From a virus (lineage: Duplodnaviria; Caudoviricetes), in IMG/VR virus record IMGVR_UViG_3300045015_000053: DNA of 64,000 nucleotides; one strand, given 5' to 3'. The notes beneath the pieces were generated by a model, which had not been told where the DNA came from, ran no database searches, and was given only the letters and a program-made list of their open reading frames with translations. Position 1 is the stretch's first letter, and each line of letters opens with the position of its first letter. The position numbers were made by a program, and so were the translations under genes. Below are positions 26,393 to 57,512 of the stretch, one piece after another.

Positions 26393-26463
26393 CCACCTTT
26401 GGGCCAGTGGCTGGCCAGCGATCTCTAAAATCGCGCACATCGGTTCGATTCCGATAAGGTGGG
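26393..26463 (+). tRNA. amber-suppressor tRNA, anticodon CUA
   Basis: Full cloverleaf: acceptor CCACCTT/AAGGTGG, D stem GGCC/GGCC with GG in the loop, anticodon stem GCGAT/ATCGC with loop CT-CTA-AA, 4-nt variable loop, T arm ATCGG-TTCGATT-CCGAT, G73; CCA not encoded. Confidence 0.9.
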
Positions 26464-26528
26464 CTGAATCTAAAACAAAATTTGCATTGGTCAGAACGAC
26501 AATCGGTTCGATCCCCACAAGGTGGGCT
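26464..26528 (+). pseudogene. degenerate tandem copy of the tRNA 3' half
   Basis: ATCGGTTCGATCCCCACAAGGTGGGCT vs ATCGGTTCGATTCCGATAAGGTGGGCT, plus a TCTAAAA remnant. Confidence 0.6.
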
Positions 26529-35614: not shown

Positions 35615-35923
35615 ATGACGCTTCAAGAGATCTATGCGATCATCTGGAAAGAAGGCGTGAATTCGCCTTCTTTGCCGCGAGGGTGGCTTCTTCCGCAAAA
35701 CCTGAAACCGGCCCAGATCAACGAACATTTCCCGGTCGATGCTTTGGTCATGGTTATGGCCGATTCTTACGGGGAACGCGATTTCGTTTACCCGAATCTG
35801 AGAAAGAGATCGTGGTGGTTCGGTCGTGTCGAGGCAGCAACAAGTGACAGGAACGTTCGTGTCAGAAGTACGTTTTCGGGAGCAGTTCGTTCGGTTCCGT
35901 ACAATAAGATCAGGATTTACTAA
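35615..35923 (+). CDS. hypothetical protein
   Basis: GAGGAA RBS. Confidence 0.7.
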   Translation: MTLQEIYAIIWKEGVNSPSLPRGWLLPQNLKPAQINEHFPVDALVMVMADSYGERDFVYPNLRKRSWWFGRVEAATSDRNVRVRSTFSGAVRSVPYNKIRIY

Positions 35924-35924
35924 C

Positions 35925-36362
35925 ATGACCGTCGTCTGCCAGAACCGCAAAGCCCGCTTCGATTATGAGGTTGTCGAAACCGTCGAAGCGGGTATTGTGC
36001 TGAAAGGCACGGAAATCAAATCCGTGCGAAACCACCGCGTTTCTCTCGACGGAGCGTATGCCAGCGTGGACGCCGGAAACGTTACGCTAGTCGGCTGCAA
36101 CATCGAGCCGTATTCGCACGGCAATGTTCACAATCACGAAGCCAAGCGTGACCGACGCCTGTTGCTCAACCGGAGCGAGATCGACAAGATCGCGAGCAAA
36201 GCGGCGGTGAGGGGGTTCACGTTGATCCCGCTGTCGATGTACATCAAGGACGGTCGCGCCAAGATCGAACTGGCCGTCTGTCGCGGTCGGCAGACGCACG
36301 ACAAGCGGCACGCCATCAAGGACCGCGAAGTGAAGAAGGCGATGAAACGGGGAAAATTCTGA
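35925..36362 (+). CDS. smpB: SsrA-binding protein SmpB
   Basis: NRKARFDY, EAGIVLKGTEIKSVR, RRLLL, GFTLIPL, HDKR. Confidence 0.97.
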   Translation: MTVVCQNRKARFDYEVVETVEAGIVLKGTEIKSVRNHRVSLDGAYASVDAGNVTLVGCNIEPYSHGNVHNHEAKRDRRLLLNRSEIDKIASKAAVRGFTLIPLSMYIKDGRAKIELAVCRGRQTHDKRHAIKDREVKKAMKRGKF

Positions 36363-54034: not shown

Positions 54035-54835
54035 ATGCCCGCCAAGAAGCCCGCCAAAGAAGTCGATCCGCTGGACGATTTCCGCAAGAAGATGAACCGT
54101 GAAAACCGCGCCAACAAGAAAGCGTTGGATGGCCTGAAGGCCAACAAGCACTTCAATGCTGAGACGGTCATGGCCGAGCTTTTCGCCGGTCTGGAATGCG
54201 GCTCCCTTCACATCGGTTGGGCGTTAGACAAGTTCTGGGGTCTGAAGGTCGCGGAGACGATGCCCAAGCTGCAAAAGATCTACGACGAGGCCGTGAAGCG
54301 GAACTACACCCGCGAGAACAACCTGTCCTTCAACGACATGGACGACAAGCTGTTCGTCATGCCGCACGACCAGTATTGTGTCCTCTGCCACGAGTTGCAG
54401 AGTTCCAACTACGTCTACGTCTGGGAACGGAACGCGCCGTCCAAGTTCCAGAAACTGCACGTCCGGCGTTACTTCGACGTACTGAAGGTCGAAGACAAGT
54501 TCGACAAGCAGGAAGAAGCCGAGTTCAAGAAAAAGGTTCGTGAGAAGGGCAAGCGTGCGGGGATCATCGCCGCGCAACGGTTCGTTGAGAACTACGCCGA
54601 CGACTACCCGGAAAATCCGTACCCGAAGCGGCTCTCGCTGGACAGCTACATCAAGGCCGGCTTCGAGATGAAGTACGGCGACTGCCGTGACGAGGGCTAC
54701 ATCCTGACGTGGGACCAGTTCCGCGACTCGGTTGATCGGTCGTACTACGAACACAGTCGGATCGAAGCAGTCCTCGACTGCTACATTCCGAGCATCGAAT
54801 ACGCACTCTTTGAAGAAGGGCGGGAAGAAGAATGA
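54035..54835 (+). CDS. hypothetical protein
   Basis: Long ORF with high GC3. Confidence 0.8.
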   Translation: MPAKKPAKEVDPLDDFRKKMNRENRANKKALDGLKANKHFNAETVMAELFAGLECGSLHIGWALDKFWGLKVAETMPKLQKIYDEAVKRNYTRENNLSFNDMDDKLFVMPHDQYCVLCHELQSSNYVYVWERNAPSKFQKLHVRRYFDVLKVEDKFDKQEEAEFKKKVREKGKRAGIIAAQRFVENYADDYPENPYPKRLSLDSYIKAGFEMKYGDCRDEGYILTWDQFRDSVDRSYYEHSRIEAVLDCYIPSIEYALFEEGREEE

Positions 54836-55605
54836 AGCTCACATTCGCCGGTGTCGGTTCGGCCTTCACCGACAGCCGTTACTGGCAATCGAACATGTTC
54901 TTCACCTCGAAGCAGGGGAAGAGATTGATGATCGATTGCGGCGGTGATGCCCGGTTCAGTTTCGGCGAACACGGCGCTACCAACCGCAACATCGGGGATT
55001 GGTCGGATGGCGTTTACATCAGCCACCTTCACGCCGACCACATCGGCGGGCTGGAGTGGTACGCCTTCTGCACCTACTTCAATCCCAACGTGTCGCGGCC
55101 CAAGTTGTTCATCGTGGACGAACTGGTCGATCCGCTGTGGGAGAGCTTGAAGGGCGGGCTGGCCTCGCTGGAAGGCAAGGTCATGACGCTCGAAGACTTC
55201 TTCGACGTGCGTGAGTTGCACATCAACAGCAGCTTCGTCTGGGAGGAACTGAACTTCACCCCGATTCAGACCGTTCACATTATGAACGGCATGGGGATCG
55301 TGCCTTCTTACGGGTTGCTCGTCAAAGAAAACGGCAACCCCGCGACCGCGTTCATCACCACGGACACGCAATACTGTCCGCGCCAGATCGAGCGATTCTA
55401 CGAACGCTCCAGCATCATCTTCCACGACGCCGAAACCGGCGCGAGACGGAGCGGCATTCACGCATACTACGACGACCTCAAGACGTTGCAAGCCGAACAC
55501 AAGGCGAAGATGTGGTTGTATCACTACAACCCCGACCCGACCCAAGAAGCCGAGGCAGACGGGTTCAAAGGGTTTGTGAAAAAGGGACAAACCTTCGAGA
55601 TCTAA
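54832..55605 (+). CDS. MBL-fold metallohydrolase, Apyc1 (anti-Pycsar)-like
   Basis: GVGSAF, LMIDCG, SHLHADHIGGLE, LWESLKGGL, TTDT, IFHD, GIHA, LYHY. Confidence 0.85.
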   Translation: MKLTFAGVGSAFTDSRYWQSNMFFTSKQGKRLMIDCGGDARFSFGEHGATNRNIGDWSDGVYISHLHADHIGGLEWYAFCTYFNPNVSRPKLFIVDELVDPLWESLKGGLASLEGKVMTLEDFFDVRELHINSSFVWEELNFTPIQTVHIMNGMGIVPSYGLLVKENGNPATAFITTDTQYCPRQIERFYERSSIIFHDAETGARRSGIHAYYDDLKTLQAEHKAKMWLYHYNPDPTQEAEADGFKGFVKKGQTFEI

Positions 55606-55650: not shown

Positions 55651-56046
55651 ATGATCAGCCCAAAAGAACTCCGCAAACTGACTGACGAAGCTCTGGTCAA
55701 CGCCGAGAAGGAACGAACTCGGCAGGCCGAGGAGCAGTTGCGGATTGCCGAAGAGAACAAAAAGAAACGCGAGAACCGCGCCGCGACGATTCTGGCCGAG
55801 ATCCCCGCAAAAGCTCGCGAGGCGGCGGTGAAGGGGAGTTGTTCGGTCGCCATCATGCGACTAGAATACCCTGAGTTCGACAAACCGTCCGGCACCCACT
55901 TCGCCCTTTGCGAACCGCAATGGTTGAAGGGCGCGGCCAAGATCGTGTGGGATCACTGCGTCGAGGCCAATCTGAAGCCGAGGCTGGAACACTGGCACGA
56001 CGGCGTGGGCATCCACGAGAGCTTCGACATCATCGTACAATGGTAG
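55651..56046 (+). CDS. hypothetical protein with an N-terminal coiled coil
   Basis: GAGGA RBS. Confidence 0.8.
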   Translation: MISPKELRKLTDEALVNAEKERTRQAEEQLRIAEENKKKRENRAATILAEIPAKAREAAVKGSCSVAIMRLEYPEFDKPSGTHFALCEPQWLKGAAKIVWDHCVEANLKPRLEHWHDGVGIHESFDIIVQW

Positions 56047-56387
56047 TCTTCTTGAAGGGTAGGCCACAACCAAAGGGTGGCCGGCTCGGTAAGAGCCGCA
56101 GTCGGGAATCTTGCCCGGTCTGGCATACATCGTGATAGACATAGTATGCCCACGAGGAGCCGCGCGAAAACTGGTGTATAACACTGGTGGCCTAGACGAA
56201 TCCAAAGTCGAGAAATTGGGACGGTGGTAACGTCGTAAGCGTTACCGCACCAACGCGAAAAATGGCCCGGTCGCTCTGGGGAACAGGGCGGCGACGAGCA
56301 AAGGTCGAAAACGCCGTCCGTGGTTGACGTAAAACTAGCCCTTCCTGGCGCGAAGTGAAACTCGTTGTGTTTTCTGGTTGTCGCTAC

Positions 56388-56479
56388 AACCGGCCCCATT
56401 TCAACAGTTGGGGGCAAATTAACTGGCCCTTTTCAATGGTTGGGGTAACTAACTAGCCCTTTTAAGCGGGTTGGGGCAA
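56388..56479. repeat. three imperfect 28-30 bp direct repeats AACYRGCCC(N7-9)RGTTGGGGYAA
   Basis: Units at 56388-56417, 56421-56448 and 56451-56479; partial copy AACTAGCCCTT near 56332. Confidence 0.85.
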
Positions 56480-56654
56480 GCTCAGGAATCTGAGCGGACT
56501 AACTGCCGATCTTGTCAGTTCTCCGTAACTGAACTGACCCGATGACGCCGGATCGTGAAGCCGTCCAGCTAGAAAACCCGTCATGCGTGTGGTTCGCCAT
56601 TGCATGGGGATGCTGGCCCTTGAAATAGATCGTTCCGGCGTTTGACGCACTCAT

Positions 56655-56687
56655 CGCCCCGGTCAGAAATGGCCGGGGCGTTTTCTT
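56655..56687 (+). terminator. Rho-independent terminator
   Basis: CGCCCCGGTCA-gaaa-TGGCCGGGGCG then TTTTCTT. Confidence 0.8.
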
Positions 56688-56759
56688 GTTCCAAAAAACT
56701 CGGACAGCCGCCCGTAGTCACCGTTAAGAACCAACGTCGCCCCCAACAAGGTACTCAAG

Positions 56760-57512
56760 ATGAGCAGCATCCACATCACGAGCTTCGTTCGCCGCCAAAC
56801 CCCGCAGAGCGGTTTCTCGCACTGGACGATCAGTGACGACGAACTGATCTCTCGCGTGGTGGCGGGCCTCCCCAACGCCAAGCGGGGCTACCGCGACGGC
56901 GTGTTACTCGTGCCGGTCAAGCCGGACGGGTTCTTCGCCGGCCTCGTCAAACTCAAGGACGGGGACAAGCTCGTCGGCGAGTACAAAGCACGCAGACCCG
57001 GCGAAGACCCACGCAAGTCAACATACGCCCTCGACGGCGTCAAGATGCCCGCCGTGAGCGTGTACGTCGTCCTCTACGCTCACGACGTGTTGGCCGAGAA
57101 GAACGAAAACGAAACCGACGCGGCGTTCGAGGTCGTGTCCGTCAACGCGAACGTGACGGAAGAGGAAGCTCCGATTCCGACCGGCGCTCTCATCGCCAAC
57201 CACTTCGGGCTGTCCGGTGGCACGAACACCAACATGACGGACAGCGAGTTCGTCGCGTTGCTCCGCAAGAGCGTGGAGTTCTGGAAGGACAAGGCTTTGG
57301 CCTGTCCGCAGGAACTGAAGCCCGACGCAGTCGCAGTTGATATTTTCAACTGCATGTTCCGTGGGTGGGCTGCTGGCGACTTCCGCCTCGCGTCCGGCAT
57401 CAGCTATGGGCAAGTGATCGAGTGGACGAAGTCGCAGGGCGGCGATCCCACACCGCTACTCAGGCGAATGGCGGAACTCGAAGAGTTGGCTAAGAACTAC
57501 AAAGACAGCTAA
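56760..57512 (+). CDS. DUF3228-like protein
   Basis: GYRDGVLLV, YKARRPGE, VVLYAHDVL, EVVS, EAPI..L.ANHFG..GG resemble the family pattern. Confidence 0.55.
   Translation: MSSIHITSFVRRQTPQSGFSHWTISDDELISRVVAGLPNAKRGYRDGVLLVPVKPDGFFAGLVKLKDGDKLVGEYKARRPGEDPRKSTYALDGVKMPAVSVYVVLYAHDVLAEKNENETDAAFEVVSVNANVTEEEAPIPTGALIANHFGLSGGTNTNMTDSEFVALLRKSVEFWKDKALACPQELKPDAVAVDIFNCMFRGWAAGDFRLASGISYGQVIEWTKSQGGDPTPLLRRMAELEELAKNYKDS

Follow-up and report, generated by a model that had tools for sequence, protein, structure and literature searches.

A probable new family of large structured RNA encoded by some huge phages

What occupies the 713 bp between two same-strand genes of a huge phage-like genome, where one open reading frame (ORF) ends at position 56046 and the next starts at 56760? 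The question arises on a 64,000-nt stretch of caudoviricete DNA (IMG/VR record IMGVR_UViG_3300045015_000053; the whole stretch is called the window here), which is part of a larger genome and shares a protein with a contig of 475,914 bp. A first-pass annotation of the letters alone had described the gap as gene-free and dense in hairpins, and had proposed a large non-coding RNA, perhaps of a new class, with a replication origin as the alternative. Our analysis favours the RNA: positions 56047-56690 of the + strand probably hold the gene of a conserved structured non-coding RNA of ~640 nt, a reading to which we assign a probability of about 0.88. It is supported by covariation, by folding of the + strand, by the lack of any conserved reading frame and by the lack of a matching Rfam family, and the RNA would form a new family within a known kind, the large orphan structured RNAs of phages. 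To our knowledge, few structured non-coding RNAs exceed ~500 nt once ribosomes, RNase P, transfer-messenger RNA (tmRNA) and introns are set aside, and each such large RNA described so far (OLE, GOLLD, ROOL, HEARO, raiA) is structurally or mechanistically unusual.

Homologues were traced through the neighbours of relatives of the flanking proteins and by scans for conserved words. Six further distinct copies emerged, homologous along the length of the RNA gene, which we denote L003, L006 (with L007 identical to it), L059, L065, L011 and L012. The L003 copy lies on a 586-kb contig and L065 within G002 (IMG/VR 3300049215_000771), a genome of 532,729 bp rated 100% complete, while L011 and L012 form a more distant branch. 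Lengths across the family range from 580 to 720 nt, and the carriers are some of the huge (0.45-0.6 Mb) uncultured phages. Identity to the window RNA at the DNA level is 83.6% over 152 nt and 86.3% over 80 nt for L003, and 85.5% over 145 nt for L006; set against these non-coding blocks at 84-86%, the flanking proteins of the same two contigs are only 31-34% (upstream) and 62-66% (downstream) identical. By this comparison, the element is far better conserved than the neighbouring genes, the opposite of the pattern expected from neutral spacer DNA. A covariance model of the core region (R1) finds exactly one copy in the window, one in G002 and none in G001, a related phage of 459 kb. Among the pattern scans of viral contigs, five patterns gave zero matches and the sixth found G002; a metagenome scan returned 45 matches, of which 43 were unrelated coding sequences (for example, an AKVEKAV peptide) and the genuine ones were L011 and L012; and a scan of genome contigs gave one chance match, in a Pseudomonas gene.

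The gap contains no credible ORF in the standard code, as the first-pass annotation had said. Reading TAG through as a sense codon opens none either, and we dropped the idea of recoding, which had been prompted by a transfer RNA (tRNA) gene with the amber-reading anticodon CUA in the window (26393-26464, +); the genome's genes still end at TAG, for example the ORF ending at 56046. Among family members, the longest open frames vary in strand and phase, with no conserved reading frame, and variable columns lack codon periodicity (24/23/24 and 21/19/20 by position). A protein-coding gene is thus ruled out by the absence of both an in-phase conserved frame and an enrichment of third-position substitutions. 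A small ORF from the AUG in AAAAUGGCCC was likewise rejected, being interrupted by a stop in L003 and shifted in frame in L006. In L006, a gene caller had placed ORFs of 131 and 60 amino acids over the RNA (L006:1740-2135, -, and 2265-2447, +); these look spurious, their frames not being shared with the window.

Folding and covariation point instead to an RNA. The minimum free energy (MFE) of the + strand is -255 kcal/mol, with z = -5.1 against dinucleotide shuffles, none of 20 of which folds as well, compared with z = -2.5 for the - strand, and in all seven family members the + strand has the lower MFE. Covariation, whose absence the first-pass annotation had counted towards refutation, is strong among the seven homologues, both in the 3' domain and in the core, and about ten helices hold their pairing through compensatory changes. 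In the alignment of the 3' domain (A7), standard pairs fill 85.5% of cells, and both partners have changed in 12 of 21 pairs; 500 shuffles never matched these values, and pairing falls to 29-46% when the partners are slid by 1-3 columns. Across the core (alignment A6), the figures are 88.8% of cells and 8 of 25 pairs. The model also holds 24 G.U pairs on the + strand that would be A.C mismatches on the other, which argues that the RNA is read from the + strand. Every stem listed in the first-pass annotation exists where it had been placed, and most are kept in relatives, several with compensatory changes.

The RNA gene (56047-56690, +) begins where conservation sets in, immediately behind the upstream stop codon, and runs through a terminator T-run. 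It opens with a conserved near-palindrome, UCUUCUUGAAGGGU (56047-56060, +), which is unique within the window at 0-1 mismatches and whose counterpart reads CUUCAUGAAG in three relatives and UUUGCAAG in L012; it may serve as the 5' end, as a dimerisation site or as an operator. Hairpin P1 follows (56062-56082, +; GGCCAC/GUGGCC, loop AACCAAAGG), and its stem covaries to GGCAAC/GUUGCC, CCAAC/GUUGG, GACAC/GUGUC and CAACG/CGUUG—five different stem sequences beneath a conserved ACCAAAG-type loop. Variable hairpins P2-P6 occupy 56083-56187 (+): P2 at 56083-56097, P3 at 56103-56117, P4 at 56122-56150, P5, with a Shine-Dalgarno-like loop AGGAGCC, at 56151-56164, and P6 at 56171-56187. Equivalents of P2 and P6 in relatives have other sequences and are still hairpins, and P5 equivalents have the stems CGCA/UGCG, CGCC/GGCG, CGCAU/AUGCG and CGUU/GACG around an (A)GGAGUC loop. 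A CsrA/Rsm sponge, considered from the sequences, was rejected in that the GGA of the P5 loop varies (UGAGUC in L003).

A conserved block, CCUAGACGAAUCCA..GUCGA..GGGACG (56191-56223, +), comes next; it is nearly invariant in four members, recognisable in L012 and absent from L065. It leads into the PT helix, GUGGUAACG/CGUUACCGC with a 7-nt loop UCGUAAG (56224-56248, or 56224-56254 with the invariant CGCACCAAC, +), which shows the compensatory changes GGCUACG/CGUGGCC and GGUUACG/CGUGACC and ends in an invariant GCACCAA, with CGCACCAA invariant in all seven members. The junction core (56255-56317, +) comprises GCGAAAAAUGGCCC, the PG hairpin (56272-56290, loop GGGAA) and GGCGACGAGCAAAGGUCGAAAACGCCGU (56290-56317); its strands GCG.AAA.UGGCCC and GGCGAC.AGCA.AGGUCGAAAA.GCCGU are invariant or nearly so in the seven members, and the PG stem covaries in four of nine pairs. 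The stem that the first-pass annotation had read here as GTCGC/GCGAC does exist, although its register is better drawn as CGCUCUG/CAGGGCG beneath the conserved GGGAA cap. RNAalifold pairs AUGGC with GCCGU and GAC with GUC into a three-way junction; because the junction bases never vary, this junction is a prediction only. The PH hairpin (56315-56329, +; CGUC/GACG) reads CGUG/CACG in L011 and L012, and L006 and L059 have it in a longer form, CGUCC/GGACG. A T-box was also considered and rejected: Rfam detects none, and the GGUGGUA..ACCGC resemblance is part of a simple hairpin.

The middle of the RNA is variable. It includes the UUGUCGCUACAA hairpin, CUGGUUG-UCGCUA-CAACCGG (56374-56393, +), which recurs as UUGUCG(C/G)UACAA, with different stem ends, in L003, L059 (twice) and L065, and then three tandem units of ~30 nt (56393-56477, +) with a GCCC(C)/GGGG(C) stem and a UUUCAAYNGUU loop. 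The first two units each have a loop whose 3' part is complementary to the next linker (CAGUU/AACUG and UGGUU/AACUA), which allows the topology of an H-type pseudoknot; we infer this second stem from one compensatory difference between the two units. The loop recurs as UUUCARCAGG on different stems (CUAGAG/CUCUAG, CCUC/GAGG) in L059, L065, L011 and L012. Two window-specific hairpins, GCUCAG/CUGAGC and AACUG/CAGUU (56480-56536, +), complete the variable part and are not alignable to relatives. Consecutive small pseudoknots are also found in tobamovirus 3' untranslated regions (UTRs; e.g. RF01080), and the parallel extends to a tRNA-like structure or tRNA downstream in L011 and L012; those UTRs, however, act in cis within the genome of an RNA virus, the window RNA is followed by a terminator and not by a tRNA-like end, and the one tobamovirus-type Rfam match is at chance level (17.6 bits, E = 3).

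The tandem units are also what could recommend a DNA-level element, that is, a replication origin with iterons or another protein-binding repeat region, since three direct repeats spaced 30-32 bp apart recur at about three helical turns. Yet the units are only 73-84% alike, and the differing units of relatives preserve the complementarity of their hairpins and not their sequence. Cumulative GC skew, the check proposed for the origin, is flat across 54-58 kb and shows no turn; GC content is 0.57, with no AT-rich stretch nearby and no initiator gene adjacent. G.U pairs, swapped tetraloops and terminators on one strand would be inexplicable at the DNA level. The pattern of conservation is that of an RNA, and we consider an origin here scarcely credible.

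The 3' domain (56545-56641, +) is closed by a helix (56545-56555 with 56631-56641) whose two strands are ACGCCGGAUCG/CGUUCCGGCGU in the window, GGUCUAAG/CUUGGACC in L003, GAUUUUGAGUCG/CGACUCAAAGUC in L006, GGACCG/CGGUUC in L059 and GGCCG/CGGUC in L065—unrelated sequences in five members that are always complementary and flank the same conserved single strands. Inside it lie GUGAAGCCGU, a helix (56565-56569 with 56612-56616) that changes from CCAGC/GCUGG to UCGGC/GUCGA to GUUGC/GCAAC across members, CCUUGAAAUAGAU, and a hairpin CAUGC..UGG-UUCG-CCA..GCAUG (56582-56606, +), whose apex UGG-UUCG-CCA is replaced by UC-GCAA-GA in L006 and L059, one stable tetraloop having been swapped for another. 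A conserved tail, (U/A)GUCGCA(C/A)UCAU (56643-56654, +; alignment A7), precedes an intrinsic terminator (56655-56690, +) with an 11-bp stem, a GAAA loop and then UUUUCUUGUU. This terminator had been predicted at first pass, and a terminator scan recovered it at 56655-56680 plus the T-run.

A terminator stands at this position in four members (the window, L003, L006 and L059), each time with an unrelated sequence, and L065 has none. L011 and L012 also lack one and have instead an acceptor/T-arm minihelix (L011:855-905; GGGCGG..GUAGG-UUCGACU-CCUAC-ACCGCCC, without D and anticodon arms) and a full tRNA-Val gene, respectively, so the first-pass statement that no tRNA-like end is visible holds for the window and not for these two relatives. 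The replacement of the terminator by a tRNA or minihelix suggests that in L011 and L012 the 3' end is made by tRNA-processing enzymes. At the other end, every one of the seven copies follows a same-strand gene, starting at most ~40 nt past its stop codon and with no intervening terminator, which makes co-transcription followed by processing plausible. In the window, this gene (55651-56046, +) encodes 131 amino acids, and its stop codon abuts the RNA.

Such an arrangement might be expected if the RNA worked in cis, either as a leader or as a 3' UTR, and controlled the neighbouring genes as a long attenuator or a determinant of stability, with no action in trans; the position against the upstream stop codon in all seven copies, and a terminator just before a same-strand gene in four of them, speak for it. 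Nevertheless, the neighbours differ by lineage (the 131-amino-acid family with a DUF3228-like gene; ribosomal protein bL12; unrelated genes and tRNAs), L065 has no terminator, some relatives keep both flanking genes without the element, and no known attenuator comes close to 600 nt with an invariant core. A purely cis-acting role is, in our judgement, improbable.

If the RNA is a gene in its own right, does it belong to a family already described? Rfam 15 gives no match at gathering scores across the whole 64-kb window, in keeping with the new class proposed at first pass. A relaxed search returns only terminator-driven matches (13-25 bits against thresholds of 39-112), and the relatives yield tRNAs only. 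ARAGORN finds no tRNA or tmRNA in the RNA gene stretch, blastn against 50,697 GenBank phage records finds no DNA match, and our literature searches turned up no description of this RNA. Searches with Escherichia coli 16S, 23S and 5S ribosomal RNA (rRNA), tmRNA and RNase P RNA, in both orientations, give only short matches with E between 0.1 and 4; as these are at chance level, we abandoned mimicry of an rRNA domain, an RNase P-like RNA and antisense pairing to rRNA as readings. A published IMG/VR survey of viral structured RNAs followed the same discovery logic of conserved intergenic regions with covariation, but its motifs are 29-151 nt long, against ~640 nt here, and at least three IMG/VR regions were required (PMC10690425), whereas our scan of viral contigs found a single member (G002). 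Given that size range and region minimum, this RNA would have been missed there.

The closest likenesses are to ROOL (RF03087) and GOLLD (RF01998), phage-borne RNAs of several hundred nucleotides with many covarying helices that are dispensable and sometimes located next to tRNA genes. Cryo-electron microscopy of ROOL and GOLLD is reportedly the subject of a preprint (bioRxiv 10.1101/2024.12.08.627333). The main rival to the trans-acting scaffold or decoy that we propose below is an RNA that, like ROOL, GOLLD or OLE, assembles with itself into a large RNA-only multimer (a cage or lattice) with no dedicated protein partner. The size of 580-720 nt, the phage origin and, in some members, adjacent tRNA genes are also typical of ROOL and GOLLD, and the conserved 5' palindrome, which cannot fold on itself, stays palindromic with another sequence in L012 (CUUCAUGAAG versus CUUUGCAAGG). 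On the other hand, the window copy of the palindrome is imperfect, L011 and L065 have none, and neither sequence nor covariance models reveal any similarity to ROOL, GOLLD or OLE. The family described here differs from ROOL and GOLLD, moreover, in its carriers, huge phages of freshwater, soil or sediment, and in its invariant junction core and pseudoknot-like array. We regard self-assembly of this kind as unlikely, if well short of negligible.

A second comparison, with tmRNA (RF00023; permuted forms RF01849-51 and RF04321), is raised by the invariant block itself, which can be read as GCA AAG GUC GAA AAC GCC GU.. and so as part of a tmRNA-related, message-like piece that works with a phage SmpB. 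Like the tag-coding part of tmRNA, the block starts with GCA (giving AKVENAV.. or AQVENAV..), lies after a pseudoknot-like hairpin and has tandem pseudoknot-like units downstream; the RNA as a whole is rich in pseudoknots and occurs in SmpB-encoding phages. A stop lies in or just past the next hairpin in five of the seven members, a helix ends ..GC-ACCA in all of them, and when L011 is compared with E. coli ssrA, its best local match coincides exactly with the tag region, with an E value of 1.1 that is no better than chance. The genome-wide picture adds to this: G002 encodes SmpB, but no tmRNA is found in it by the RF00023, alpha, beta and cyano models or by whole-genome ARAGORN, while G001, without SmpB and without this RNA, has a canonical tmRNA (L067:1501-1835, that is, G001 122834-123168; 82.7 bits, above threshold), for which ARAGORN makes no call and no SmpB gene is found in the record. 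Since ARAGORN missed this genuine tmRNA, its silence elsewhere counts for little.

The structural hallmarks of tmRNA are nonetheless missing. There is no tRNA-like domain with an aminoacylatable end: the RNA ends in a terminator, its invariant ACCA is internal and not a free CCA end, and no T-loop is present, the only GGUUCG being a UUCG tetraloop that is GCAA in L006 and L059. Nor is there a G3:U70 pair, the helix before ACCA reading G:C, U.G, G:C from its end in the window branch. No tmRNA model, tmRNA_permuted included, matches the element. The GCA-initiated frame is conserved for seven codons and has lengths of 9, 9, 9, 11, 12, 20 and 75 codons, and the ends of the putative tag are unrelated and not hydrophobic; L011 has no nearby stop, and the 20 codons belong to L006. 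The block is invariant at the nucleotide level and predicted to be paired. A tmRNA relative is therefore a very doubtful identification, and more doubtful still is a bolder version in which huge phages would run an unconventional trans-translation system split between molecules, with this RNA as its message-like half. In such a system, phage SmpB and a separate alanine-type tRNA-like RNA would bring ribosomes onto the invariant GCA AAG GUC GAA AAC.. segment, which, if true, would account for the presence of SmpB and this RNA, without a detectable tmRNA, in the complete genome G002. G002 encodes a tRNA-shaped RNA (L068:1501-1585; G002 55504-55588) whose acceptor stem has an alanine-type G3:U70 pair, whose T-arm is normal and whose anticodon loop carries ~18 extra nt; ARAGORN calls it as a tRNA with a 4-base anticodon. 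Pairing of the element with this oversized loop was examined by eye and rejected: the one 7-nt match falls in a non-conserved part and is what chance would give.

The mechanism that we favour for the structured RNA gene is a different one. The RNA would be co-transcribed with the upstream same-strand gene, or started just inside that gene, and released as a stable molecule, in one branch at its terminator and in the other through RNase P/Z-type processing at the tRNA or minihelix that follows. It would then act in trans as a folded scaffold or decoy, with the invariant junction core as the putative binding site of a partner and the repeat array as a variable, multivalent spacer. As a guess, and a tentative one, the partner may be sought in the translation and tRNA apparatus that these phages re-equip. 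In G002, the RNA directly follows a phage bL12 gene, with a YqeY-like gene nearby; in L012, it is flanked by tRNA genes (tRNA-Val follows); and both the window phage and G002 encode SmpB.

Several of these genes can be described further. The bL12 of G002 (L095:7545-8012) has the dimerisation and C-terminal domains, and the YqeY-like gene lies ~1 kb upstream of it. The whole G002 record holds 56 tRNA genes, four with anticodon CUA and one with UCA. The SmpB gene of the window (35826-36362, +) matches Pfam PF01668 at E = 3.6e-54 and has more than 2,000 relatives (2,108), many of the closest among the matches listed being on contigs of hundreds of kilobases. Co-occurrence with SmpB was also considered as a functional link in itself and rejected: it fits the window, G002 and G001 and fails with L003 (among the matches listed) and with L113, an SmpB-encoding relative in which the element is absent from the 6.4-kb stretch searched around the syntenic upstream gene.

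A number of observations weigh against the interpretation as a conserved RNA gene tied to translation. Only seven distinct members from three lineages are in hand, for which reason the invariant core is not assessable by covariation. L011 and L065 do not fold significantly better than their shuffles, and the window copy of P5 contains one A.C mismatch. No convincing promoter is found, only weak -10-like boxes upstream. L060 and L113 keep the same flanking genes and lack the element, which is thus dispensable; relatives of this sort, with both flanking genes and no element, mark it as an accessory gene. What ties the RNA to translation is its gene neighbourhood at three of the seven loci, together with SmpB, a common gene in phages of this kind, and none of the 120 SmpB matches listed, out of 2,108, comes from the 586-kb contig of L003.

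The upstream 131-amino-acid protein belongs to no Pfam or PHROG family; its homologues sit 5' of the RNA in L003, L006 and L059 at 31-37% identity, and it has ~50 metagenome relatives, some in apparently bacterial contexts, with a conserved C-terminal W-x2-G-A-x-K-x-V-W..W-H-D-G motif. The downstream DUF3228-like gene (56760-57512, +) is syntenic in the same three relatives. A ToxI-like type III antitoxin RNA was rejected on account of this gene, which is not of the ToxN family and is widespread without the RNA, and of the repeats, which are one module in a much larger conserved RNA. The window also encodes, two genes upstream of the RNA, an Apyc1-like hydrolase of the metallo-beta-lactamase fold (54832-55605, +; PF23023, E = 8.6e-22), an anti-Pycsar protein type. 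G001 has a recurring intergenic module of a stop and a hairpin (L001:3040-3990): in a row of four small genes, every one terminates in TGATACCAACTAG, and a hairpin of the GGGGGACAC..GUGUCCCCC type comes next.

The conserved RNA gene indicates that gene-free gaps in huge-phage genomes are not junk, and that gene callers sometimes put spurious ORFs into them, as in L006. The carriers bring their own translation parts, including SmpB, bL12 and dozens of tRNAs, and the family provides a defined set of sequences with which to ask what huge phages do with large RNAs.

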